Below, piece after piece: positions 1 to 12,419 of a stretch of 64,000 bases of DNA. The translations under genes and the position numbers were made by a program. Source of the stretch: a bacterium. GTDB lineage: Bacteria; UBP15; UBA6099. Under the pieces are notes generated by a model. It was not told the origin of the DNA, did not search any database, and worked only from the letters and a program-made list of their open reading frames with translations. The DNA is taken from positions 23,348 to 87,347 of the forward strand of contig JAKQPS010000051.1 of NCBI GenBank assembly GCA_029564595.1, given 5' to 3'. How positions within the stretch are numbered: the stretch's first letter is position 1; each line of letters starts with the position of its first letter.

Positions 1-363
1 CTCGCGTGGACGGGCGTTCCTCTGGAGCCAGTGCTGCGCAGCGCCCGCAGACTCGGAGAAACCCGCAAGCGCGTGTGGGTCCGCACCCCCGTTATCCCCG
101 GCGCCACAGACTCGCCCGAAAATATCGCCGCTGTCGCCCGCTTCATCGCCGACAACCTTCCCGGCTGCGACCGCTACGACATATTGCCATTCAGCAATTT
201 GTGCGCGTCAAAATACGAAAGGCTGGGCATGGAGTTCAGGTTCAAGGAAACCCCGCTCGTGCCGATGGAACGGATGGAAGAGTTAAAAGCCGCCGCCGAA
301 CGCGCCGGCGCCCCCAACGTCGTAATCCAAGGTCTCACCACAAGAAAATCCCAACCGGAATAA
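1..363 (+). CDS. glycyl-radical enzyme activating protein (radical SAM), C-terminal fragment; 5' end is outside the window
   Basis: Frame 1 is open from base 1 to TAA 361-363. The tail VWVRTPVIPGATDSPENIAAVARFI...YDILPFSNLCASKYERLG parallels the C-terminal half of the complete activase at 28886-29803 (LPRIPLIPGATDTDENLAASAAFL...LLSYNPTWTDKMRMLG). Confidence 0.75.
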   Translation, partial: LAWTGVPLEPVLRSARRLGETRKRVWVRTPVIPGATDSPENIAAVARFIADNLPGCDRYDILPFSNLCASKYERLGMEFRFKETPLVPMERMEELKAAAERAGAPNVVIQGLTTRKSQPE

Positions 364-426
364 AAACAGTTTTTTAGACGAAATTGTTGAATTGTATAAA
401 TGCAAAAACAAAGAGAAGAAGATAGT

Positions 427-461
427 ATTTGCGGGAAAACCATTTTTATGCAAAAAACAGG
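427..461. repeat. 35-bp repeat copy 1 (atttgcgggaaaaccatttttatgcaaaaaacagg); 33/35 identical to 6169-6203, same orientation
   Basis: Direct string comparison of the two sites. Copy 1 lacks the 3' arm that makes copy 2 a long hairpin. Confidence 0.85.
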
Positions 462-464
462 AAA

Positions 465-1592
465 TTATAGATAGAAATAAAGCTGATCCAAGATAAGAAT
501 CATTTGAAGAGCTCTAATTTTCGTGTAATCATCGGGTTTTGCTACGCCATGAGATGAGCTATGTCTCGATAATGCAACATTGTTTTTTTCCAAGTCAAAC
601 TGTGAAAATATTACGTTGTTCAGATAATTAAAAAAACTATTCGTGAATAACAAAGAATCTTTATGTCCAAACTTGGCATCACACTTATTCACAAGATAAT
701 TCAATAAGTCTTTTATTTTAATCCTTCCTTTATTTGTTTCTTGGTAATAATTCAAGCGCAATATACCTTCAACCTCAGTAATTATGTTTTTAATGCAACT
801 TATATATCCTTCTTTATTCAATAAAAGATAAGAATTTATGCCTGCTTTGATTATAGATTGTTTATTAAAATAATATTCGTTATTCCACCATTTATCTGTG
901 ATACTTTCAATACGTTCTTTATCAAAGCGAGAAACTATATTGTCTATTCGTTCTTCAAATCCGATTTTGTCTTTGTAAATGCCCATCAAATCTTTGAATT
1001 CTGTATTCATTATTTCGACAAATGGGAACCAACCATCATTTTGCATTTCTTCGAGCATATTTTGCGAATCAAGCAATTTGTATAGGTGACAATACAAGAG
1101 CTTTCTTTCTAGTTTGCCAATATCTAAATAGGCTTTATCTAAATCCATCAAGCCGTCCCCAGCAAGATCAAAAAACAATCCGAATTTCCATCCGACTTTG
1201 AAGCAGTATACCATCTTGTCTGTTTCTAATATCTCAATTTCAGGAAATCTAATTCTTCTAATATCAAGGATATCGTTCTTTTGTATAAGTTGTCCCTTTT
1301 CAACATTGCATTTTGGACATATTTCCATTTCTGTTTTAAATTCATTCAAGTAAATATCGGCTGAAAAATCTTTATGAATCAGTATCAAAAAACGATTAAT
1401 AGTGTCTATAATGATGTTGTTTGCAGTCAAAAATATATCAGAAAGCTGATCAGTGTAGTTGTAGAATTCTTGTTCGTCTGAAGTGAATGTTGCTCTAGTT
1501 AGGACTTTGCAGATGCCTTCATTTATTTTTGTTTCAGTAGCAAAACCCATGATACTTCCAGAGTTATCTAAATGGTCAACATGGATATGCAT
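465..1592 (-). CDS. hypothetical protein with C-terminal HEPN-like domain (Rx4H motif); candidate RNase/abortive-infection-type effector; horizontally acquired
   Basis: 375-aa ORF with AAGGAG 7 nt upstream of ATG 1592. The DNA is visibly AT-rich against GC-rich flanks. The C-terminus reads ...NNVALSRHSSSHGVAKPDDYTKIRALQMILILDQLYFYL, giving R343-x4-H348-G (codons 564-566 and 549-551). The N-terminal ~230 aa has no motif I recognise. Confidence 0.55.
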   Translation of the reverse strand: MHIHVDHLDNSGSIMGFATETKINEGICKVLTRATFTSDEQEFYNYTDQLSDIFLTANNIIIDTINRFLILIHKDFSADIYLNEFKTEMEICPKCNVEKGQLIQKNDILDIRRIRFPEIEILETDKMVYCFKVGWKFGLFFDLAGDGLMDLDKAYLDIGKLERKLLYCHLYKLLDSQNMLEEMQNDGWFPFVEIMNTEFKDLMGIYKDKIGFEERIDNIVSRFDKERIESITDKWWNNEYYFNKQSIIKAGINSYLLLNKEGYISCIKNIITEVEGILRLNYYQETNKGRIKIKDLLNYLVNKCDAKFGHKDSLLFTNSFFNYLNNVIFSQFDLEKNNVALSRHSSSHGVAKPDDYTKIRALQMILILDQLYFYL

Positions 1593-1644
1593 TATTATCT
1601 CCTTTATTACACTTCAAAGAATTCATAAAATGAACAGAACATAA

Positions 1645-1674
1645 ATAATATATTTATCGTAAATATTTAGTCAA
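1645..1674 (-). promoter_or_regulatory. sigma70-like promoter candidate for the HEPN-like gene (TTGACT-18 nt-TATTAT)
   Basis: On the minus strand, TTGACT lies at 1674-1669 and TATTAT at 1650-1645, about 50 nt upstream of ATG 1592. Confidence 0.35.
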
Positions 1675-1728
1675 GATAGATACGATGTCATGACGAGAAA
1701 ATAAGGGAAATAGGGAAAATAGAAAATA

Positions 1729-1812
1729 CAGTCACCTATTTATGGTGTTGTATTTTCGGCGAAAAGCGGGTACAGGCATCGCTGGGATGCGCGCTGCCAG
1801 TCCCCGTTTTTC
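1729..1812. repeat. 84-bp non-coding repeat, copy A (26-nt and 53-nt blocks identical to copy B at 4229-4317)
   Basis: cagtcacctatttatggtgttgtatt + ttcgg + cgaaaagcgggtacaggcatcgctgggatgcgcgctgccagtccccgtttttc. It lies 137 bp upstream of the minus-strand ATG at 1592. Confidence 0.9.
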
Positions 1813-1833
1813 GAAGGATAAAGCGCAAAACTT

Positions 1834-2274
1834 ATGCCTGACAAAAAAACAAACTCCTTAAAAATATGCATAGCGATGTTCGCTGGTTTTTTCTTTGTTG
1901 TCATTCTTGTCGTGGTTTCCGGTTTTATTTGCATGGGAGAAACGCGCAGATTTATAAGCGTCTCTGATGATATAGTCCGCTCAAACGAGAATGGTTTCCA
2001 GATGCGTGTGCGTTATGTCGCAGAGGATAATATCATGTTTAACGCTTGTTCCTTTGAAAGACCAGAATCATTTGCTGATGACGCAATAAAGACAGTCAAG
2101 GCAAATATCAATAAACAGGTTGACGCGGCAGTCGCAAAGGAGCTAACAGAAGATGATGAGGAAAAGCTCAAACATGATATTGTTAATATAGTGGAGGCGG
2201 TGGTTTGCCAAAACGGATGCGACAAGGGGCCTCTAGTTGAAATCTATCAACTTGAAAACAGGCATGAGGAATAA
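1834..2274 (+). CDS. small N-terminally anchored membrane protein, function unknown
   Basis: 146-aa ORF with hydrophobic span FAGFFFVVILVVVSGFICM and an acidic C-terminal half. Lower GC than the backbone. Divergent from the HEPN-like gene. Confidence 0.6.
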   Translation: MPDKKTNSLKICIAMFAGFFFVVILVVVSGFICMGETRRFISVSDDIVRSNENGFQMRVRYVAEDNIMFNACSFERPESFADDAIKTVKANINKQVDAAVAKELTEDDEEKLKHDIVNIVEAVVCQNGCDKGPLVEIYQLENRHEE

Positions 2275-2319
2275 CCCTTATAGCTTTTTGAGTCGGGCCG
2301 GCAGGTTGTTTTTTTCGCT

Positions 2320-4011
2320 TTATTTCTCAGCGACGATTATCACGTGGATTATGCTCACAATATACATGTATGCAATCAGCCATATCAGGACGGTTTTTAT
2401 CGGAATCCACACGATGGGAAACCATCCGAGTGAATATATGTTCATGTAATCGCAATAAATGGGAATAAGAAATAGGACTGTGAGCGACGCGAGAATTAAG
2501 CCAAATATGAAATGCCGGGTGTAGAATTGTCCGGCGCACGGGAACAATAGTGAAATCAACAGCGAAGGAACCAGTTTTCGTGGAGCCGGTTGTGTCCGTG
2601 AGGAGCGGGTTGCCGCGCTGACAACATAGCCTCGCGTCTTCATATCGTCCCATAAAAACACCGAGTACGCCAGAACCGCCAGCAGGGCCATGAGGCATGC
2701 CGCGAACAGGCTGCGTCCTATCCCGCCAAGCCTCCTGTTGCTTTTCACTATCCCTGCCAGACGAGTCATTTCATCATTGATTTCGGTCTCAGGCGCCGCG
2801 ACGACTTCATCCGTGTCCGGGTTCCATATCCCCGCAAAGCACTCGTCGATGTCGGTGAAAGAAACCATCCCGTCAGGAGTCATTTTCATTTTGCGAGCGT
2901 CGATATGGCTTCCATCGGGCAAACTCAGGAACGCGGGTCTGATGAATTCGCCATTGAAATCGAACACACCCACATAGCCGTCCGGGGTTACGAAATCGTC
3001 CGCGTACGCCACATACAGCCTTTCGCGAAACGCATCCGCCACCATGCGCGTCGGCCACGATTTGACTTCCCAGTTTATCGGTCTCAGGGAAGAAGACATT
3101 TCACGAGGGGAAGCCGCCCATCCTCTCAGAGAAAAAGCGCGCGATGCCGGATTGGCGGCCCGTTCGTCGAGAGTCTGCGCGCGCAAATTGTTGGTCTCGG
3201 CTATCAGCGCGGAGCCGTCCGGCAACTGTTCCACCCCGTTCGGAAAATCGAACTCCCCATCATGCATGCCGCGTTTGCCTATGGTCTTAATCAAATCCCC
3301 TTCCGCGCTGAAAAGTTTCAGGTTGTGTTTCCCGGCGTCCGCCACCAGCACGTCTCCGTTCCTCAACGTCTTCAGAGTGAACGCGCCGCTTAACGAGTCT
3401 TCTCCGAAACCTGATATCCAATTGCCGTCTTCGTCGAACACCTCAATGCGGTTGCGGCCTGTGTTAGCCGCATAGATGTTTCCGTTCGCGCCGAATTCGA
3501 AATCCAGCATGCCGTTCAGAGTTCTTTCGCCCGCGCGTTCGGCCTTCCACAGCAGCGATCCGCTCGCGTCGTAGCGGGACAGCGATTTCATGGTTGACAG
3601 GTAAACTCCGTCATGCGTCGGCTGATATTGAATCGGTCGCTCAAGGAATGGCTTCTTCGAGTCGGCGGTGATGAAACATAATATGGAAACTACCATGACG
3701 ATAAAAACCGCGACAAGCGGCCCTTTGTGTCTTTCCTGCATTTCTTTGAAGACTTCGGAAAAAGGCAACTGCGGGGGGACGATATAAGGAGGTTGGGGAA
3801 CGGAGGAATCGGCGGTGGGCCTAGCGGCGTTCTGGCGCGCCACGCTTGATGAGTCCGCGATTTCCCCGCCGGATGATATCTGAGGCGCCGGTTTGCGGGG
3901 GGATTCATTTGAGGCTTGATACGTCGCGCGCGAGGCGTTTCTGCTGCCGCATCTGGGGCAAAACTTAGCGCCCTGCGCCTGTTCAGCGCCGCAATTATGG
4001 CAAAAGCTCAT
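2320..4011 (-). CDS. zinc-ribbon / TM / NHL-like beta-propeller / multi-TM membrane protein (paralog of 30492-33038)
   Basis: N-terminal CHNCG-x11-CPRCG, a Pro-rich linker, then TM LVAVFIVMVVSILCFITA. Propeller-type repeats follow (NGNIYAANTGRNRIEVFDEDG, GDVLVADAGKHNLKLFSAEG, DGSALIAETNNLRAQ). The C-terminus has several TM helices including PCAGQFY. Confidence 0.75.
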   Translation of the reverse strand: MSFCHNCGAEQAQGAKFCPRCGSRNASRATYQASNESPRKPAPQISSGGEIADSSSVARQNAARPTADSSVPQPPYIVPPQLPFSEVFKEMQERHKGPLVAVFIVMVVSILCFITADSKKPFLERPIQYQPTHDGVYLSTMKSLSRYDASGSLLWKAERAGERTLNGMLDFEFGANGNIYAANTGRNRIEVFDEDGNWISGFGEDSLSGAFTLKTLRNGDVLVADAGKHNLKLFSAEGDLIKTIGKRGMHDGEFDFPNGVEQLPDGSALIAETNNLRAQTLDERAANPASRAFSLRGWAASPREMSSSLRPINWEVKSWPTRMVADAFRERLYVAYADDFVTPDGYVGVFDFNGEFIRPAFLSLPDGSHIDARKMKMTPDGMVSFTDIDECFAGIWNPDTDEVVAAPETEINDEMTRLAGIVKSNRRLGGIGRSLFAACLMALLAVLAYSVFLWDDMKTRGYVVSAATRSSRTQPAPRKLVPSLLISLLFPCAGQFYTRHFIFGLILASLTVLFLIPIYCDYMNIYSLGWFPIVWIPIKTVLIWLIAYMYIVSIIHVIIVAEK

Positions 4012-4190
4012 CTATGCCGCTCCGTTTATGTTTGCTTATAGTCAAGTCAATGTTGATCGTTTTATTATACGCTATTTTTGCTGCTGAGCCAGAGTTTTTA
4101 TGATATTTGTCAAAATAGGAAATAAAGAAATAAAACAGGCGCATGATTATTTGCGTTGAGGGCGAAAAGCGGAAATAAAAATAGAAAAAT

Positions 4191-4240
4191 AGAAAAATAG
4201 GGACAGTCACCTATTAGAAAAATAGGGACAGTCACCTATT
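4191..4240. repeat. perfect tandem 25-mer x2 (agaaaaatagggacagtcacctatt), with a partial third unit upstream
   Basis: 4191-4215 equals 4216-4240. The second unit overlaps the start of repeat copy B. A degenerate version sits at ~1711-1740 next to copy A. Confidence 0.85.
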
Positions 4241-4317
4241 TATGGTGTTGTATTCCCGGGGTGGCGAAAAGCGGGTACAGGCATCGCTGGGATGCGCGCT
4301 GCCAGTCCCCGTTTTTC
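4229..4317. repeat. 89-bp non-coding repeat, copy B (see 1729-1812)
   Basis: The same 26-nt and 53-nt blocks as copy A, with a 10-nt rather than 5-nt joint. It lies 218 bp upstream of the minus-strand ATG at 4011, in the same orientation as copy A. Confidence 0.9.
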
Positions 4318-4339
4318 CCGTTTTTCGCGGCGAGGGCTG

Positions 4340-5959
4340 CTATGAGCGGCGGACGCCTAGCGTTTTTTTGCCGGCTTTGATAAGGTCGGTCACCGTCGGG
4401 TCCGTCGCTTTGGGTATGTAAGTGACTTTGCACAGGGCGATTATGGCGAGGACGACGAAAACGGCTCCCTGAACGAAAAGCCAACGGTATCCGAAAGCGG
4501 GGATGGATGCGGCGAGTGTTCTGTCGATGACGAATCCGGCGAGCACGCCGCTGATGAGTTGTCCGATGCCGGTGATGGTGGAGTAAAGGCCCATGTAGAG
4601 GCCCATTTTGTCTTCGTTCATGAGTGTGGGCAGGACGGTGGCGGTGATGATGAAGCAGATGGTGAGGCCGAGGGCGGTGAATCCGATGACGAGGAGCATG
4701 ATTTTGAGGACTTTGCCTGTCTCGGCGTCGATTTTCGGTCTGATGGCTTTGACTGCGGCGGCTGTGGAGGCGAGGGCCGGGTTGTCGTCGCCCATGACTG
4801 CTGCGATGGCTGTTTCGCATTTGTCGGGTTCGAGTTCTCCGTTTAGGCACCAGCGGAGGGCGTCTGATTTTTTGTCGTCGAGCATCTTGTCTTCATTGAT
4901 GTCGCGCGGAGGGCTGAGCAGTTCGGGCAGGAACAAAGAGAAGTCGGCTTGGGATACGTCGATGCCGTAGTTGTCTGCGGCGGCGCGGACGTCTTTTTCC
5001 GTTCCGAGGTTCAGCCCGGAGACTGAGGAGGTGGGGCCGACGACGAAGTATCCGGTGGTGAGGCCGACAGCGATAAGGATTAGGCCGGCCATGAGGATGG
5101 CTTTGCGGCTGACCTTGTCTCCGAGCATGCCGACCGGCACGGCGAGGATGACTGAAATGACGACTACGATGCCGAGCACGAGGCCGCCCTGAGTTCCGGG
5201 GATGTTGATGTAGTATTCGGTAAGTTTGGTGAAGAAGGAGATGAAAGCGCCGAGGGCCAGCCAGAAGAAGAAGTCCATGACGAGGAACCAAGTAAGTTCT
5301 TTAAGGGAAGGCATTTCGGCGATGATGTCTTTAGTGAAGTTCCAGCCGAGGCGCAGCTTGTTGCCCTTTTCGGGCGGAGGGGCGGGAAGCTCTTTTATCG
5401 ACACGACGGTGACTATCGTTCCGGCGAGGTGGACGACGGCCAGAATATAGAAAGAGAGAGGTTTGTTGACGGAGTAGACGACCATGAGAAGGACGGCGTA
5501 GGCGACCATAGTGCCGATGCCGCCGAACGCGCTGAAGAACGCATTGACAGTGCCGAGTTTCTCGTTGGGCGTGACTTCCGGCACGAGCGCGAAGTAGGGG
5601 ACGGCGGCGAACTGGATGAAGAAATAGATGAAGGTCATCAGTATGATGAGGACCCACACGGAGGGCATGTGGGGGATGAGCGCGATAAGGGGGGCGGAGA
5701 CGATGCCGCCGATGAGCATGAGGGGCCTGCGCTTGCCCCATTTGGCTTGAGTCAGATCGGAGTAGATACCGAAGAACAGAGACAGGCCGATCATGAGTTT
5801 GCCGATGCCGATGATGGCGCCTATCTGGGTGTTGGTCAGCCCGAATTTGGAGGTGAGCAGCAGTGGCATGGCCGCGCCGTCGAAACTCCAGAAGCAGACA
5901 AGTCCGAAGTTGATGACGTTGAGAAGAATCATCTGGGGGAGCGTGATTTGTTTCTTCAT
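4340..5959 (-). CDS. MFS transporter, GPH/MFS_2-like, with a ~110-aa hydrophilic insertion
   Basis: 539 aa with a multi-TM profile. Loop motif SDLTQAKWGKRRPLMLIGG resembles the GPH-family D-x..G-R-R-R-P loop. A hydrophilic block spans aa ~309-418. Confidence 0.75.
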   Translation of the reverse strand: MKKQITLPQMILLNVINFGLVCFWSFDGAAMPLLLTSKFGLTNTQIGAIIGIGKLMIGLSLFFGIYSDLTQAKWGKRRPLMLIGGIVSAPLIALIPHMPSVWVLIILMTFIYFFIQFAAVPYFALVPEVTPNEKLGTVNAFFSAFGGIGTMVAYAVLLMVVYSVNKPLSFYILAVVHLAGTIVTVVSIKELPAPPPEKGNKLRLGWNFTKDIIAEMPSLKELTWFLVMDFFFWLALGAFISFFTKLTEYYINIPGTQGGLVLGIVVVISVILAVPVGMLGDKVSRKAILMAGLILIAVGLTTGYFVVGPTSSVSGLNLGTEKDVRAAADNYGIDVSQADFSLFLPELLSPPRDINEDKMLDDKKSDALRWCLNGELEPDKCETAIAAVMGDDNPALASTAAAVKAIRPKIDAETGKVLKIMLLVIGFTALGLTICFIITATVLPTLMNEDKMGLYMGLYSTITGIGQLISGVLAGFVIDRTLAASIPAFGYRWLFVQGAVFVVLAIIALCKVTYIPKATDPTVTDLIKAGKKTLGVRRS

Positions 5960-6168
5960 AATAGTGAGCCGTCTCCGTTGATTTTAGAAGTTCCGATTCT
6001 GGCGGAACTGTCATTATTGAAAAACCGCGCCTTCTGTGCCGGATTGGCCGTTCGGGGCGCGATACGTAACAATAGCATACACGCGGAGTTTCGCACAAGA
6101 AAATAATAAGGTCGCGTGTGCTGATTACTGATTAAGGGTTAAACAGCCGCTTAAAAGATTTGTCCGGA

Positions 6169-6400
6169 ATTTGCGGGGAAACCATTTTTTTGCAAAAAAC
6201 AGGTTTCCCCGCGCCCCTTCCGAAAAAAACTCCCGGCGCGCCGGTTTTGCTGAACTGCGTTCAACGCAAAACCGGCGGTTTTTGCAAAACAGCGAAATGC
6301 GGGCAAAGGCAACAGCGAAAGAGGATAAAAGCGAAAAACGGCTTAAAAAGGTTTTCGCCTTCGGCGATTGGGAAAAAACCCTTTGAAAAGGGTTGTTTCC
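6169..6400. repeat. cluster of palindromic (REP-like) hairpin elements in a 545-bp divergent intergenic region; includes copy 2 of the 35-bp repeat
   Basis: Hairpin 6173-6212 has a perfect 10-bp outer stem (gcggggaaac/gtttccccgc) plus an inner T6/A6 stem. 6233-6244 is the palindrome ccggcgcgccgg. Hairpin 6241-6275 pairs ccggttttgc/gcaaaaccgg with an inner tgaac/gttca stem. Hairpin 6371-6400 has a 13-bp stem with one mismatch and loop tgaa. Confidence 0.8.
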
Positions 6401-6503
6401 CCAAACCCCTTTTCCAAAACTTTTCGGGTTTGTTCCGAACATTTCACAGGATACGGGCTGCGGATTTCTATCAAGCATCACAACAAACGGTTATAATAAA
6501 AAA

Positions 6504-6914
6504 ATGGCGCCATACAGGATTGTGGAACATACGGCGGATGCCGGGATACATGTGACGGGCGGGACGCTGGAGGAGTTGTTTGCGGACGCCGCGCGGGGGA
6601 TGATGAGCGTGATATGCGAGGTCCCGCCGGAAGGATGGCCGGAAACGCATGTTGTGGAGTTGTCCGCGCCGGATGCGGAATCGCTGATAGTGGACTGGCT
6701 GGCGGAGCTGCTGTATCTGCTTGAGGTGAAGAATTTTTTCACGACCGACCCGCGAGTGGAGAAAGTGGAGGGGGGAGCGATGAGGTCGGTGGTCGGCGGG
6801 GCGAGGCTGCGCGGCGTGGTTCACGCCACCGAAATCAAGGCTGTCACCCACCACATGATAAGCGTTGACCGCACGTTGAACGGTTTCGAGACCACGATAT
6901 ATTTCGATCTTTGA
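6504..6914 (+). CDS. archease (RtcB cofactor)
   Basis: MAPYRIVEHTADAGIHV... carries the archease EHTAD signature. Length and C-terminus (KAVTHHMISV...TIYFDL) fit. Its stop overlaps the rtcB ORF. I chose ATG 6504 over the longer 6393 ORF because the upstream part runs through the repeat cluster. Confidence 0.85.
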   Translation: MAPYRIVEHTADAGIHVTGGTLEELFADAARGMMSVICEVPPEGWPETHVVELSAPDAESLIVDWLAELLYLLEVKNFFTTDPRVEKVEGGAMRSVVGGARLRGVVHATEIKAVTHHMISVDRTLNGFETTIYFDL

Positions 6915-6934
6915 AGCGAGCCGAGGAGGCGGGC

Positions 6935-8389
6935 ATGCCGGACTGGACGAAATGCTTCGACAGCGTTTCCGACTACAAGATAAAGATACCAAGAACCTGT
7001 TTTGAAGGGATGAGGGTTCCGGGGATAATTTACGCCGGGCCGGAACTGCTGGACGACCTGAAGAGCGACGACGCGCCGCAACAGGTGGCGAATGTGGCGA
7101 CGCTGCCGGGGATTGTGGAGTATTCGCTCGCCATGCCCGACATCCATTACGGGTACGGGTTTCCCATTGGCGGGGTAGCGGCGATGTCAGTGGAGGAAGG
7201 CGTGATATCGCCGGGCGGGGTGGGGTTCGACATCAATTGCGGGGTGAGGCTGCTGGCGTCCGCGATAGAAGCGGGCGACGCGAGGGCAAAGGCGGACGAA
7301 CTGGCGACCAAACTGTTCCGGGACGTGCCGACAGGGGTAGGCTCGACGAGCGACATACGTCTGCGCGGCGGGGACATGGATAAGGTTCTGCAAAGGGGAG
7401 CGGCGTGGGCGGCGCGCAACGGTATGGGATGGGATGAGGACTTGGAATACTGCGAGTCCGGCGGGGCGTTGGAAGACGCCGATCCGGGGGAGGTCGGCCG
7501 CAGGGCGAGGGAGCGCGGCGCGAACCAGTTGGGCACGCTCGGCGCGGGCAACCACTTCATCGAAGTTCAGGAAGTGGAGGAAATATTCGACGACAGGGCG
7601 GCGCGGGCGTTCGGGCTTGAAAAGGGCATGGCGGCGGTGATGATACATTCGGGGTCGCGCGGGCTGGGGCATCAGGTGTGCGACGACGCCATCCGAACGA
7701 TGCGGGAGGCTGTTGTCAGATATGGATACGAGCTGCCCGACAGGCAACTGGCCTGCGCGCCGGTGGAGTCTCCGGAGGGGCGGGCTTACTATGCGGGGAT
7801 GTGCGCGGCGGCCAACTTCGCGTGGGCCAACCGGCAGTGTCTGGCGCACACCGTGAGGGGGACGATGGAGCGAGTGTTCGGGGCGTCGGCGGAGCGGCTG
7901 GGGCTTAGGCTGGTGTATGACGTGGCGCATAACATCGCCAAATTCGAGGAGCATGAGGTCGGCGGGAAGAAGCGGCGGCTGTGCGTGCATAGGAAAGGGG
8001 CGACGCGGGCGTTTGCGGCGGGACATCCCGAACTGGCTCGAAGGCATGCCGGGGTGGGCCAGCCGGTAATTGTGCCGGGAGACATGGGCAGCGCGTCTTA
8101 TGTTATGGCGGGAACGCCACAGGCGATGGCCGAAACTTGGGGGTCGGTGTGCCACGGGGCGGGCCGGGTGAAAAGCAGGACTTCCGCGAAAAAGGAGTTC
8201 AATGCGGCCACCGTGCTCGAAGAGCTGGCGGCGCACGGCGTGACCGTGCGGGCGGGGTCGAAGAAGTCGCTGTTGGAGGAAGCGCCCGGAGCGTACAAAA
8301 ATGTGGACCATGTGGTCAACACATGCGTGAACGCGGGGCTGGCGACGATTGTCGCGAGGCTGCGCCCGATTGTGGTGATAAAAGGATAA
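6935..8389 (+). CDS. rtcB: RNA-splicing ligase RtcB (3'-phosphate/5'-OH RNA ligase)
   Basis: Motifs GYGFPIGGVAA, DINCGVR, GAGNHFIEVQ, HSGSRGLGHQ, HRKGAT, GDMGSASY and CHGAGR are present. GAGGAGG lies 5 nt before ATG 6935, which I prefer over TTG 6911. Confidence 0.95.
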   Translation: MPDWTKCFDSVSDYKIKIPRTCFEGMRVPGIIYAGPELLDDLKSDDAPQQVANVATLPGIVEYSLAMPDIHYGYGFPIGGVAAMSVEEGVISPGGVGFDINCGVRLLASAIEAGDARAKADELATKLFRDVPTGVGSTSDIRLRGGDMDKVLQRGAAWAARNGMGWDEDLEYCESGGALEDADPGEVGRRARERGANQLGTLGAGNHFIEVQEVEEIFDDRAARAFGLEKGMAAVMIHSGSRGLGHQVCDDAIRTMREAVVRYGYELPDRQLACAPVESPEGRAYYAGMCAAANFAWANRQCLAHTVRGTMERVFGASAERLGLRLVYDVAHNIAKFEEHEVGGKKRRLCVHRKGATRAFAAGHPELARRHAGVGQPVIVPGDMGSASYVMAGTPQAMAETWGSVCHGAGRVKSRTSAKKEFNAATVLEELAAHGVTVRAGSKKSLLEEAPGAYKNVDHVVNTCVNAGLATIVARLRPIVVIKG

Positions 8390-8510
8390 TCCGGACAAAA
8401 TTCGGATATGCGCGAAAACAACGTATCGCGCGCGCGATTTAACCGCGACATAGATGAATGCCATTGATTTTATAGCGTTAAAAGAATATGAAAATGAATA
8501 TATTATGACT

Positions 8511-8538
8511 TTGACAAAAAGAACGCATAGCATATAAT
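8511..8538 (+). promoter_or_regulatory. consensus sigma70 promoter (TTGACA-16 nt-TATAAT) for the 8571 gene
   Basis: TTGACA at 8511-8516 and TATAAT at 8533-8538. GGGGAGAG RBS at 8559-8566, ATG at 8571. Confidence 0.6.
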
Positions 8539-8570
8539 ACATTCGAATTTTTAAGAATGGGGAGAGCAAG

Positions 8571-10061
8571 ATGCAAAGCAAACACATCGGCGGGGGCGTC
8601 ATCTTCGCGGCGGCGCTTGCGTTTATAGTGGTAATATTCGCCGGGCATGCGGCGCGCGCGCAGGAGGCAAAGAGCCTAAAAATCAACCTTGCCGTGAGCG
8701 ATGAAAGGCTCCTCATTTACGCCGGAAGCTCGGCGGGGGTGAAAATCGGACAGAAATTCACTGTGGTCCGCGACGGCAAGAGCATCGGTTCCATAGTTGT
8801 CGCGGAAGTAAAACCGACATATTCAATCGCGAAAGTAGTGGAAAAGACAGTTGAAATGCGGGATATGGATGAACTGGTCGAGTTTGGAAAGGAACCATCG
8901 GCGGCGGCGATTTCCGCAGTTGAGCAACCGACAAAGAGGGGAATGAAGGAAGTTGCCCCGGCGGCGACAGCGACTGCTCCGGCGGCTGAAGAGAAGAAAG
9001 AAGAATCGGCGCCTGCGGCTTCATCAAGGGGCCGAAGAGGAAGCGCCGAACCTGCGGCGGAGGCAGCTCCTGCGGCTGCGGCGGAACAGCCTGCGGCAGC
9101 AGCGGAAGGGACTTCATCAAGAAGACGCGGAAGGGCTTCTGCCTCGGAAAGTCCGGCGGCGGCGGAATCCGCGCCGGCAGCCGAATCCGCTCCTGCAGCG
9201 GCGGAATCCACTTCGGGCAGAAAAAGAGGCCGCGCTTCCGGCGGCTCCGCTGAACCTCTGGGAGATGAACCTGCGGCGGCTGAAGAAAAGAAATCAGCTC
9301 CTGAAAAAAAGAAAATCAACTCGCCAATGGATCTGTCGTTCGCCACAACCGGCGGAATGTCCGGTCTTTGGATGGTTCCCACTACGGATGTGCTCGAAAA
9401 CCGAAAATTTGCTATTGGCTTGTACGCCTCAAGCTATTCGGAATCCATGACAGTAAAAGTCTTGAGTCCCATGTCGAATGTCGACACATCATATTATGGT
9501 TATTGGATGGATCTGAAAGATGAAACCATCGGCCTTTCGTACGGGCTGGGAAAAGGATTGGAAGTCGCTTTTAGTCAAACCAGATATCATGGCTCGGCAA
9601 TGGTGTATTTCGAAGGCGATTCGGAAAGCGTTAACTACGATGAAAACAACACGTCCATAGCGTTGAAGTACAATCCGCAAAAGCATTTTCTTCTATCTGA
9701 ATCGACGAATAAAAAATGGGACACGGCGTTTGCAGTCGAGAGATATGAAATGGGAAGCGATGATGGCACGACGATCTACGGGCTGGTTAATTTTCCATAC
9801 GACAAGTTTGACCTTCACGGCGGAATATTCCACATGAGCCAGCAGGGACGGACCGGAAAAAAATTCGGAACCCTCGCCGGAGTAGGCATGGACATATCCC
9901 CTGAATTGCTTTTCATCGGAGAAGTCATGTTGTATCAGGCGCAATACACGTGGAACTATGCTGTCAGATACATATACGAGAATAAAGGTTCCGTGATGCT
10001 CGGCATAGCCGACGCGGACGATGTTAGACGCCTGACGCTGGGGGCGGCGTATCAATTCTGA
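8571..10061 (+). CDS. outer-membrane beta-barrel protein with N-terminal small domain and long Ala/Pro/Glu linker carrying Arg-Gly-rich motifs
   Basis: Signal-like N-terminus GGGVIFAAALAFIVVIFAGHAARAQE. Low-complexity region at aa ~108-250. The C-terminal ~245 aa alternates in beta-strand fashion and ends ...LTLGAAYQF, a typical OMP beta-signal. Confidence 0.6.
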   Translation: MQSKHIGGGVIFAAALAFIVVIFAGHAARAQEAKSLKINLAVSDERLLIYAGSSAGVKIGQKFTVVRDGKSIGSIVVAEVKPTYSIAKVVEKTVEMRDMDELVEFGKEPSAAAISAVEQPTKRGMKEVAPAATATAPAAEEKKEESAPAASSRGRRGSAEPAAEAAPAAAAEQPAAAAEGTSSRRRGRASASESPAAAESAPAAESAPAAAESTSGRKRGRASGGSAEPLGDEPAAAEEKKSAPEKKKINSPMDLSFATTGGMSGLWMVPTTDVLENRKFAIGLYASSYSESMTVKVLSPMSNVDTSYYGYWMDLKDETIGLSYGLGKGLEVAFSQTRYHGSAMVYFEGDSESVNYDENNTSIALKYNPQKHFLLSESTNKKWDTAFAVERYEMGSDDGTTIYGLVNFPYDKFDLHGGIFHMSQQGRTGKKFGTLAGVGMDISPELLFIGEVMLYQAQYTWNYAVRYIYENKGSVMLGIADADDVRRLTLGAAYQF

Positions 10062-10079
10062 TCGGCGGGGTGAAAGCGG

Positions 10080-10499
10080 ATGAGCGAAAAGAAGATACGG
10101 GTGATAGTGGCGAAGCCGGGTCTTGACGGACATGACAGAGGCGCGAAAGTGGTTGCGCGCGCGCTCAGGGACGCCGGCATGGAAGTCATATATCTTGGAT
10201 TGCAGCAGACGCCCGAAGACATCGTCAATTCCGCCATTCAGGAAGACGCCGATTTCATAGGGATAAGCTCGCTGGCGGGCGCGCACATGACGCATTTTAC
10301 GCGCGTGCTGCAACTGCTCAAGGATAAAGAGTCCGAAGACATCCTCGTCATCGGAGGCGGAATAATTCCGGAAGACGACCGGGAAAAACTTCTCGAAGCG
10401 GGCGTGGCGGCGCTGTTCGAGCCGGGCGCCCCAACTCAAACAATCATAGACGAAATCAAAAAAATAAAAGAGGCGTCAGCAGCGGCGGCCGCGTCCTGA
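10080..10499 (+). CDS. stand-alone cobalamin-binding domain protein (methylmalonyl-CoA mutase small-subunit/C-terminal-domain type)
   Basis: [36 protein letters not shown] contains the DxHxxG B12 motif; GISSLAGAH and VIGGGIIP also fit. Confidence 0.85.
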
Positions 10500-10544
10500 C
10501 GAGCCGAGCGCGCGAACCGTTCGTCAGCGAACGGGGGAGAAATC

Positions 10545-10982
10545 GTGTCGGAAAAAACCGGATGTGTTTTTTGCGATTTCGACAGCCGGCATATCATTGC
10601 GGAAAGCGAGTTAGCTTTTGCCGCGCATTTTGATTGCGCCATCAAACCCGGCCACATAGTGGTGGCGCTCAAAGAGCATGTCGAGTCTCTTGCCGCGATG
10701 TTGCCTGAGCAGGCGGCGGACATCATGAGACTGGCGGCGCGAGTGGCGAGAGCGGCGGAGCGTGTTGCGGGGTGTGAGAAGTTCTATCTGGTTTCTATTG
10801 CGGACGCGGTTCCCCATTATCACATGCATCTGCTTCCGCTAATGAGGGGAGAGGCTCCGCTTGGGCCGTGTATCATGGGAGATTCGGGGTGGAAGGGAGA
10901 AGTCGGCGCGGCGGTCGGGGAAGAAGAAATCGCCCGGTTCATCTCGTCATGCCGGGAAGCGCTGTCGGAACAGAGGCGTTGA
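10545..10982 (+). CDS. HIT-family hydrolase
   Basis: Histidine triad HYHMHLLP and N-terminal CVFC. GTG start 10545 is preceded by GGGGGAGA. Confidence 0.8.
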   Translation: MSEKTGCVFCDFDSRHIIAESELAFAAHFDCAIKPGHIVVALKEHVESLAAMLPEQAADIMRLAARVARAAERVAGCEKFYLVSIADAVPHYHMHLLPLMRGEAPLGPCIMGDSGWKGEVGAAVGEEEIARFISSCREALSEQRR

Positions 10983-11039
10983 AGCTATGCCGCATAGCGC
11001 GAAAGCGCCGCGCGGGTTGTTCCCGATTAGGAAAAAAGA

Positions 11040-12419
11040 ATGGGAAAAGACATAAAAAAGAGAAGAAAACCAAAGCGGACGAAGTCGCCGCAGGCAATAT
11101 TGGTGTGGGGATTCGCCGGAGCTATAGCAATCGGGACGATTCTTCTATGGCTTCCTTTCGCGCATCAGCCGGGCCGGGTGGGTTTGCTTGACGCGCTGTT
11201 CACCGCGACATCCGCAGTTTGCGTGACCGGGCTTGCAGTGGTGGACACCGGGTCGGATTTCACGTTGTTCGGACAGATAGTGATACTTCTGCTGATACAA
11301 CTGGGCGGCCTTGGCGTGATGACGTTCGCGGTGATAGCTTTCAAGGCGTTGGGGATGAGGTTGTCTCTAGTGTCTCAGGCAGCCGTTCAGGACTCGATGT
11401 TCCAGAAGGATGTAGCCGTTTTATTCAAAAGCGTTTTTGGCGGGATTTTGGCGCTTACGTTGATAATTGAATTCATCGGGGCTGCCGTGTTGTTCGCGTT
11501 TCTTGCTCCTTTGAAGGGGGCGTCCGGGGCCGCGTTCACTTCTGTTTTTCATTCCGTGTCGGCATTCTGCAACGCGGGTTTTTCTTTATATCCGGATAGT
11601 CTTATCGGATTGCGAGGGACAGGAGGATTGGCGGCGGTGGTGGCGGCGCTTATTGTGCTTGGCGGATTGGGCCATACGACGCTGTATGAGATATTCGGGC
11701 TAGTAAAAAGAAAATTGACGGGAAAGAGAAGCGTTGGAAAAATTGCGCGCCTGTCGCTACACGCCGCGACGGCGCTATGGATGTCGGCGGGGCTAATCAT
11801 CGCGGGAGCTGTTATGCTCATGATTTTCGGGCTGACAACTGGCGAAAAAAACGCTTGGGAGATAGTCGGGAACGCCCTGTTTCAGTCAGTGACGTCGAGG
11901 ACTGCCGGGTTCAATACGATAGATATTGGAGCGCTACCGGTCGCGTCGCTTTTTCTGCTGACGACGCTCATGTTTGTTGGAGGGTCTCCGGGGTCTTGTG
12001 CCGGCGGCGTGAAGACGACGACTCTGGCGGTGTGGCTTGCGAGAATTAAGTCCAGTCTGGCAGGGGAAAAAGAAGTCAGCATACTTGGCAGGAGGCTGCC
12101 TGATGAAACAGTGTCTCGGGCGGGTTTGCTGATGGGGCTTGCGATTCTTTGGAATATCGCGGGAGTGATGATTCTCAGCGCAACGGAGCCGGGCGTCAAC
12201 GGAGCAGGCTTGAGCCAGATTGTTTTTGAACAGGTGTCGGCGTTCGGAACGGTCGGATTGTCTACGGGAATAACCCCGTCGTTGTCCGTGTCGGGACGCT
12301 TGTGGATTATCCTGACGATGTTCGTGGGAAGGCTGGGGCCTCTCACAATGGCGGTATGGATAGTGAATAAAAAACGGGTCAATGTGCATTATCCGAAGGG
12401 CGAGGTGATGATAGGATGA
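11040..12419 (+). CDS. ktrB: K+ transporter membrane subunit, TrkH/KtrB family
   Basis: 459 aa, multi-TM, with repeated selectivity-filter-like segments (VCVTGLAV, FCNAGFSL, SRTAGFNT, FGTVGLSTG). Confidence 0.85.
   Translation: MGKDIKKRRKPKRTKSPQAILVWGFAGAIAIGTILLWLPFAHQPGRVGLLDALFTATSAVCVTGLAVVDTGSDFTLFGQIVILLLIQLGGLGVMTFAVIAFKALGMRLSLVSQAAVQDSMFQKDVAVLFKSVFGGILALTLIIEFIGAAVLFAFLAPLKGASGAAFTSVFHSVSAFCNAGFSLYPDSLIGLRGTGGLAAVVAALIVLGGLGHTTLYEIFGLVKRKLTGKRSVGKIARLSLHAATALWMSAGLIIAGAVMLMIFGLTTGEKNAWEIVGNALFQSVTSRTAGFNTIDIGALPVASLFLLTTLMFVGGSPGSCAGGVKTTTLAVWLARIKSSLAGEKEVSILGRRLPDETVSRAGLLMGLAILWNIAGVMILSATEPGVNGAGLSQIVFEQVSAFGTVGLSTGITPSLSVSGRLWIILTMFVGRLGPLTMAVWIVNKKRVNVHYPKGEVMIG

Follow-up and report, generated by a model that had tools for sequence, protein, structure and literature searches.

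A likely new HEPN-like protein family of probable stand-alone anti-phage RNases, represented by an AT-rich gene of a UBP15 bacterium

The stretch analysed here (hereafter the window) covers 64,000 nucleotides of contig JAKQPS010000051.1 from a bacterium of the UBP15 lineage. Near its start, an AT-rich coding sequence on the minus strand (465–1592) specifies a protein of 375 residues. We found that this protein belongs, at full length, to a large two-domain family without annotation; homologs cover 98–100% of it, and the family is widely and patchily distributed and is named in no database. Judged from sequence, it is likely to be a new, uncharacterised HEPN-like family, and its members are probably stand-alone anti-phage ribonucleases (RNases). 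We slightly favour, over its denial, the full statement that the gene encodes a divergent HEPN-type, single-gene anti-phage abortive-infection RNase acquired horizontally, and our confidence that it is a HEPN-like conflict gene is somewhat higher.

Size, conservation and setting of the family

To define the family, we used a word-indexed search (cut-off E ≤ 1e-3), which returned at least 502 homologs aligned over 98–100% of the query at 45–65% identity. Nitrospirota, Chloroflexota and Methanophagales were among their sources; every one is annotated as "hypothetical" and lacks a Pfam domain. An exhaustive profile search over representative clusters at 50% identity (E ≤ 1e-3) recovered at least 1,092 clusters, 416 of them at E ≤ 1e-30, and nearly all of the proteins are of ~375 residues. 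An earlier note on this DNA, made from the letters alone, had called the gene an orphan, a description that these numbers overturn.

Family loci (n = 81 in species-representative genomes) are found in Chloroflexota/Dehalococcoidia, Poribacteria, Bacteroidota, Planctomycetota and Patescibacteria. The bacterial genera include Bradyrhizobium, Rhizobium, Stappia, Caulobacter, Novosphingobium and Paenibacillus, along with a Klebsiella metagenome-assembled genome, and archaeal members occur in Bathyarchaeia and Methanophagales. Eight large plasmids of Bradyrhizobium, Agrobacterium, Rhizobium and Rubrobacter also carry the gene, always annotated as "hypothetical protein", and a distant subfamily at 19–25% identity takes in Vibrio harveyi. 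No homolog was found in complete Escherichia coli genomes. Rare members (P0249, P0279 and P0231) carry N-terminal fusions to HTH_3 (XRE-type), HTH_17 or a UDG-like domain, which could be real or gene-calling artefacts. Since occasional N-terminal HTH fusions are common in conflict systems, we counted them for the defence reading.

The family gave no match in 50,697 phage records, in PHROGs or in 2.9 million IMG/VR contigs, and a phage origin was rejected on the absence of matches from the phage collection and IMG/VR. The sole viral case is a metagenome contig of Siphoviridae sp. ctpbe1, in which the gene is split in two (BFVD A0A8S5NQ77 and A0A8S5NQ38). The split copy consists of a 136-residue open reading frame (ORF) for the N-domain and a 217-residue ORF for the C-domain, and the cut coincides with the predicted domain boundary. 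Fragments comprising only the N-domain or only the C-domain also occur among the representative matches, for example P0199 and P0188.

Residue conservation was counted in 242 full-length family members, and alignment A7, which reaches 19–25% identity, served as a second set. The predicted catalytic site is the R-x4-H motif R343-H-S-S-S-H348-G349, encoded at 546–566 on the minus strand and invariant in alignments A1, A4 and A7. The earlier note had picked out this motif and had proposed the invariance of R343 and H348 among homologs as a check; both residues proved near-invariant, R343 being present in 236/242 members (98%) and H348 in 240/242 (99%), with G349 at 98%. Position 344 is H in 196/242 (81%) and N in 40/242 (17%), together 98%. 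A lone R-x4-H could arise by chance; here it is meaningful because it is near-invariant across the family.

A second motif, E275-G-I-L-R279, lies in a long core helix (756–770, minus strand) and has the form E-x3-[KR]. Position 275 is E in 220 and D in 18 of the 242 members (98% acidic), G276 is conserved at 98%, and R279 is found in 202/242 (83%). Consistently, E275 and G276 are invariant in A7 and R279 is kept in at least 90%. The published hallmarks of HEPN domains are an Rx4-6H motif, a polar N, D or H directly after the R, and an upstream acidic residue, typically in Ex3[KR] (PMC3710099). All three are present in the family, as R343-[H/N]-x3-H348 and E275-x3-R279.

Conservation extends beyond these motifs. 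The segment GWFPF (187–191) is conserved at 97–100%, with W188 in 241/242 members, and the residues invariant in A7 are G16, D39, W135, D142, W188–F191, W235, E275, G276, F320, S342, R343, H348, G349, A351 and Q370. The N-domain and the C-domain are conserved to about the same degree.

The ORF at 465–1592 is real and intact: the window copy is full-length and keeps every conserved family residue. Its GC content is 0.31 versus 0.544 for the window, with a sharp-edged trough of 0.26–0.34 (in 300-nucleotide windows) versus 0.55–0.65 in the flanks, bearing out the earlier description of a strikingly AT-rich gene in a GC-rich chromosome. Across the family, the gene is lower in GC than its flanks in 77/80 loci, by 7.5 points on average. 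A Shine–Dalgarno sequence, AAGGAG (1599–1604, minus strand), can be read 6 nucleotides ahead of the ATG, as the note had stated. The promoter-like pair that it had also reported, TTGACT-18-TATTAT, is present on the minus strand (1674–1645) and matches a sigma-70-like promoter at 10/12 positions, with TTGACT-16-TATATT as a variant in the same segment (1645–1674). It is a pattern match of a kind frequent in AT-rich DNA, with 14 such matches in the region versus 7.5 expected. The gene is plausibly expressed. No MNT or antitoxin-like gene adjoins it among the window ORFs or in Pfam, NCBIfam and PADLOC scans, in agreement with the earlier observation.

Upstream of the gene lies a hairpin repeat of ~85 nucleotides (copy A, 1728–1812), whose second copy (copy B, 4228–4317) is 2.5 kb away and shares 55 identical nucleotides. 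Copy A folds into a small hairpin and a long A-tract/stem/U-tract hairpin (z −4.96 on the plus strand and −4.22 on the minus strand), the latter looking like a bidirectional terminator. Short tandem repeats flank both copies (GAAAATAGG x2.9 at 1697–1722; a 25-nucleotide unit x2 at 4190–4240). Metagenome contigs from related strains (L094 and L095) match the window at 95–99% from a major facilitator superfamily gene up to the hairpin and diverge exactly there; both contigs end before the far junction. Their corresponding slot (L095 3858–4625; L094 1–768) holds, in place of the window gene, a different AT-rich gene with its own AAGGAGG Shine–Dalgarno sequence, and its 165-residue multi-transmembrane product had no Pfam or PADLOC match. 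Given a different AT-rich gene at the same site in a related strain, this is a cargo slot that varies between strains, of which window 462–1727 represents one allele. Such slots are typical of defence hotspots, and this one speaks for horizontal acquisition.

Domain layout and genomic contexts

To examine the domain layout, we built an AlphaFold2 (AF2) model of the full-length protein from a 28-sequence alignment; it had a predicted local distance difference test score (pLDDT) of 86.5 and a predicted template-modelling score (pTM) of 0.83. DSSP assignment of this model gave an alpha/beta domain for residues 1–145 and an all-helical region for residues 150–375. The N-terminal alpha/beta domain (1158–1592, minus strand), which we propose to be a sensor or regulatory domain, contains the conserved residues G16, D39, N83, D110, W135 and D142. 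It is followed by a helical middle region (residues 146–255; 828–1157, minus strand) that bears G187-W-F-P-F191, the most conserved motif of the family, together with W235. The HEPN-like core was delimited by AF2 secondary structure (residues 256–375; 468–827, minus strand).

Within the C-terminal region, the helices are 260–286, which contains ExxxR, an insert helix at 293–308, 317–328, a distorted segment with a short helix at 343–348 (RHSSSH), and 358–374. A canonical HEPN domain has four helices in an up-down bundle, and an insert separates helices 2 and 3; the acidic residue lies in the helix before the insert, and Rx4-6H at the distorted end of helix 3 precedes helix 4 (PMC3710099). The modelled helix order of residues 256–375 fits this layout. 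HEPN families are mutually undetectable by sequence (PMC3710099).

Genomic contexts were compared by clustering the ORFs within four genes on each side in 84 loci, and no universal partner gene emerged. The earlier note had proposed asking whether homologs sit in defence islands or in housekeeping operons; they lie in defence islands, restriction–modification (R-M) operons and mobile regions, with no fixed housekeeping operon. One locus (L001) is a defence island with ApeA-HEPN, DUF4145, AAA_15 plus DUF4276 and PIN genes, and another (L003) has SLFN_AlbA_2 and AbiU2 as neighbours. In the Agrobacterium plasmid pAtLMG305, the family gene is accompanied by Shedu SduA and a HEPN/Toprim-associated protein, and a Swt1-family HEPN gene lies 17 nucleotides downstream of it. 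Other loci adjoin integrases, resolvases, UvrD or DpnI. Solo insertions among housekeeping genes also occur, for example directly after ispG in L004.

The sole recurrent neighbours are DNA methylase genes, directly upstream in 13 loci, those scanned in Poribacteria being Type III Mod, and ResIII helicase genes, downstream in 9. Poribacteria supply 11/13 of the Mod loci and all 9 Res loci. In many species of this phylum (L034, L039–L045, L048, L077 and L084; ~5900–12000) the family gene has a fixed place between mod and res of a Type III system, and some of these loci have further uncharacterised genes before res, for products of 220, 986 and 1,208 residues, the last with a pPIWI-associated-nuclease-like N-terminus. 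A Type II restriction enzyme, considered in view of the methylase upstream in L022, was rejected, as most members have no methylase nearby.

Several results weigh against the HEPN-type anti-phage reading. Scans of Pfam, NCBIfam, PADLOC and PHROGs gave nothing meaningful for the protein, 28 family members and two divergent members, and in particular no HEPN profile matched in Pfam (single protein and the 28 members), NCBIfam or PADLOC; the profile search that the earlier note had suggested thus went against it. PADLOC 2.0.0, which includes the PD-T7 systems, had no family at E ≤ 1. PDB sequence profiles yielded no true match for the single protein or for three profiles, and hhalign comparisons with single AbiU2, DUF4145, ApeA and Swt1 sequences stayed below 1% probability and were uninformative. 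In Foldseek searches, the full-length model had no PDB match with E < 0.5, Csm6 (6tug) and AbiV (9bj7) appearing at E~2. With the C-domain only, the top PDB match was the sacsin HEPN domain 3o10, which was not significant (E = 1.7, probability 0.47; template-modelling (TM) score 0.50–0.53 by target and 0.33–0.35 by query). The 35 matches of that search also included the HepT toxins 5yep_B and 8xdj_B and HepS 9oij; HEPN was the only recurring named fold among them, which we counted for the HEPN reading; none was significant, with every match at E > 1 and TM only ~0.5. The RHSSSHG loop had a pLDDT below 50 in the C-domain-only model, as against ~89 when the whole protein was modelled. The difference hints at stabilisation of the loop by the rest of the protein, a weak indication as the alignment depths also differed. 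Finally, the R-M linkage amounts to about three independent events, and the window gene, like many family loci, has housekeeping neighbours. Collectively, the models weakly support a HEPN fold of the C-domain. The earlier note had proposed a horizontally acquired RNA-targeting effector with an unplaced N-terminal domain and no antitoxin. As a HEPN-like, probably RNA-targeting effector, this is still the best reading in view of R343 and H348 at 98–99%, the hallmarks and the contexts, and what falls short is the HEPN fold, with its weak support and lack of a profile match.

Other candidate assignments were discarded. A C-type lysozyme match at residues 219–291 (window ~720–938) was weak but repeatable (E~0.01–0.2) through a WW...C...G pattern and vanished with a more diverse alignment, which marks it as chance. 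A PD-(D/E)xK nuclease site in the N-domain (D110/D125/C130-x-K132) was rejected: a hydrophobic residue (C/L/I/V) occupies position 130, and R often replaces K132. Fold matches of the N-domain to profilin, longin, PsbP and herpesvirus NEC all had E > 0.5 and were not used.

Proposed mechanism and competing explanations

We propose that the C-terminal helical domain acts as a divergent metal-independent HEPN-type RNase with its active site at R343/H348, aided by H344 and E275/R279. H348 would be the general base and R343 would stabilise the transition state, with H344 and E275 helping, roles that we infer from mutagenesis of RNase L, PrrC and RloC (PMC3710099) and from ApeA, HepS and DARNA. The N-terminal alpha/beta domain and the GWFPF helical linker would hold the enzyme latent and sense an infection signal. 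By analogy with ApeA, HepS, DARNA and PrrC, the active form may be a HEPN dimer or a higher oligomer assembled through the HEPN domain. Phage infection would then lead to cutting of tRNA or other RNA, arrest of translation and abortion of the infection. A single gene would suffice; it would have been acquired horizontally as a self-contained unit that brought along its own promoter and Shine–Dalgarno sequence, in a strain-variable slot beside a terminator-like repeat. In Poribacteria, where it lies between mod and res, it could serve as a PrrC-like back-up to restriction. The HEPN fold, the cleavage of RNA, the formation of oligomers, the triggering signal and the action against phages are all inferred in this scheme.

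By architecture and logic, the family stands closest to ApeA and HepS, and to PrrC/RloC for the R-M-embedded members; it belongs to none of them, as it lacks their profile matches and domains. In ApeA, a single-protein HEPN anticodon nuclease, as in this family, one polypeptide combines a non-catalytic domain at the N-terminus with a C-terminal R-x4-H domain, and no antitoxin gene is present (PMC3710099; bioRxiv 10.64898/2026.01.26.701840). The family shares with ApeA the occurrence in defence islands and R-M operons, and in L001 one island holds both an ApeA gene and a family member. However, the Pfam domains ApeA_NTD1 and HEPN_Apea are absent here (no Pfam match), hhalign against the L001 ApeA gave a probability of 0.3%, and the family proteins have 375 residues versus 470 for that ApeA, an unrelated N-domain and the extra GWFPF linker. 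HepS of the Gifsy-1 prophage is likewise a stand-alone HEPN protein, which both senses infection and executes abortive infection by tRNA cleavage (PMC13043305), and 9oij is among the C-domain fold matches. Its fold alignment is nevertheless poor (TM ~0.2, E = 7), its PDB chains of 186–191 residues have no counterpart to the N-terminal alpha/beta domain, and, unlike the prophage-borne HepS, the family is essentially absent from phages.

The anticodon nucleases PrrC and RloC have an R-x4-H RNase core, often sit in R-M operons and act as back-up when restriction is blocked (PMC3710099), and the Poribacteria members between mod and res resemble them in this. In contrast, their N-terminal ABC-ATPase is absent from the family, and R-M embedding is confined to Poribacteria and two other loci, the window not among them. 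For the type VII toxin–antitoxin system HepT/MntA (HEPN-MNT), the HepT structures 5yep_B and 8xdj_B and the related sacsin HEPN domain are the best-superposing folds (TM 0.36–0.53 by target), yet no MNT nucleotidyltransferase or other conserved neighbour occurs in the 84 loci, and the protein is much larger, with two extra regions. DARNA (PD-T7-3) is also a single-protein HEPN abortive-infection tRNase with a second, sensor-like domain (bioRxiv 10.64898/2026.02.22.705581). It differs in having its HEPN domain N-terminal, the opposite order, and a length of 456 residues, and PADLOC 2.0.0 gave no match. The active sites of DARNA are reported to lie ~8 Å apart.

If correct, our reading would enlarge the list of single-gene HEPN effectors of abortive infection by a sizeable family. 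This family comprises at least 1,000 clusters at 50% identity in bacteria and archaea, including cultured Bradyrhizobium, Agrobacterium, Caulobacter, Paenibacillus and Vibrio, and is invisible to Pfam, NCBIfam and PADLOC. It offers clear predictions of catalytic residues (E275, R343, H344 and H348) and a candidate sensor domain that is unexplored. Its natural contexts, which are solo copies, defence islands and Type III mod-X-res operons, could be used to study the coupling of RNases to restriction. It is not a new principle, as stand-alone HEPN defence proteins are already well established.

The first alternative to be weighed is that the gene encodes a conflict or mobile-element protein whose C-domain is something other than a HEPN RNase. 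On this view, the conserved E/R/R/H set would be used for a different chemistry or to bind a ligand (for example in a nucleotide-binding sensor, a phosphoesterase or a DNA-directed activity), and the resemblance in R-x4-H would be convergent. The missing HEPN sequence profile match and the non-significant fold matches point this way, as do the near-invariant acidic residues D39, D110 and D142 of the N-domain, which mean that catalysis could lie elsewhere. Against it, the family combines the published hallmarks in their proper sequence (Ex3R, then R-[HN]-x3-H, then the terminal helix), HEPN is the one named fold that recurs in the C-domain search, and mutual undetectability by sequence is the rule among HEPN families (PMC3710099). 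We regard this alternative as unlikely, though worth serious weight.

A bolder form of the HEPN reading is speculative and, in our view, decidedly unlikely as a whole. Here the N-terminal domain and GWFPF linker would together be a novel kind of module that senses the trigger and controls a divergent HEPN RNase. Certain lineages would use the protein as a guard within Type III mod-X-res that fires when phages disable restriction, and the archease–RtcB pair near the window gene could reverse the damage and so allow recovery from the arrest.

It is quite improbable that the gene is the toxin of an addiction or toxin–antitoxin system, mainly stabilising a mobile element instead of countering phages, with an antitoxin that has escaped recognition, either the protein's own N-domain or a small RNA of the repeat-bearing upstream region (type III-like, as has been reported for AbiF). 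Tandem repeats (GAAAATAGG x2.9, 1697–1722) and hairpins do precede the gene, members of the family are found on large plasmids and close to integrases, and HEPN toxins are common in toxin–antitoxin systems (PMC3710099; bioRxiv 10.64898/2026.02.22.705581). However, type III (RNA-antitoxin) systems have the order promoter, tandem repeats, terminator, toxin, whereas here the terminator-like hairpin comes first, then the repeats and then the promoter-like site, with none of the repeats between promoter and gene. The same repeats are found at copy B and beside the alternative cargo gene and so belong to the site, not to the gene. No neighbouring protein is conserved in the 84 loci, and the L004 copy directly after ispG is a solo insertion.

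We consider it very improbable that the protein is an accessory or guard subunit of Type III R-M systems, as PrrC is with EcoprrI, and that the window copy is a stray or decaying remnant. The upstream methylases (13 loci, several of them Type III Mod) and downstream Res genes (9 loci) suggest such a role. Yet 11 of these 13 loci are from Poribacteria, essentially one lineage, and ~70 other loci, the window included, have no R-M genes nearby. The window copy, moreover, is full-length and undecayed, with all conserved residues in place.

The last alternative, proposed in the earlier note, is that the HEPN-like protein works together with a small membrane protein encoded by the divergent 146-residue ORF (1834–2274, plus strand; ORF list), which has an N-terminal hydrophobic segment. 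The two genes are indeed adjacent and divergent, with repeat copy A between them, and 4 contigs from this organism retain both. The two-gene module built on this arrangement finds no support and is largely refuted, with next to no probability left. Among 5.8 billion proteins, the sole match of the 146-residue protein is its own 99%-identical cluster, so that homologs occur only in its own organism, and none of the other family loci has the ORF as a neighbour. Related strains with another gene in place of the HEPN-like gene still carry the ORF, and the terminator-like hairpin, which ends 22 nucleotides ahead of its start codon, separates the two genes. The composition, described earlier as similar, differs as well (GC 0.41 versus 0.31). 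The 146-residue ORF is a true orphan and not a partner of the HEPN-like gene, and it may not be a functional gene.

Repeats and other genes around the slot

An Rfam search of window 1–7000 gave no match. For an integron attC reading of the hairpin repeat, no canonical GTTRRRY core was seen by eye, and no formal search was made. A mobile element or transposase was rejected, there being no terminal inverted repeats and no tRNA target.

Directly 3' of the gene lies a 35-nucleotide repeat (D5a, 427–461) with a palindromic TTTGC...GCAAA frame. Its 94%-identical copy (6169–6203) is ~190 nucleotides upstream of an archease–rtcB operon. A regulator might bind at this repeat, or it might be a scar left by recombination.

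The window also encodes, at 2320–4011 on the minus strand, a 563-residue protein that has a zinc ribbon at its N-terminus, transmembrane segments at its C-terminus and NHL/beta-propeller repeats (a weak match to ScyF); the gene's GC of 0.54 is host-like. The operon for archease and the RNA ligase RtcB (6393–8389, plus strand) lies ~4.8 kb from the predicted RNase gene. RtcB seals 2',3'-cyclic-phosphate/5'-OH ends, which are those made by HEPN RNases. Within 8 kb of a family gene, RtcB was found at only one other locus (L050, 1078–3021), and this anecdotal co-occurrence may be coincidental.

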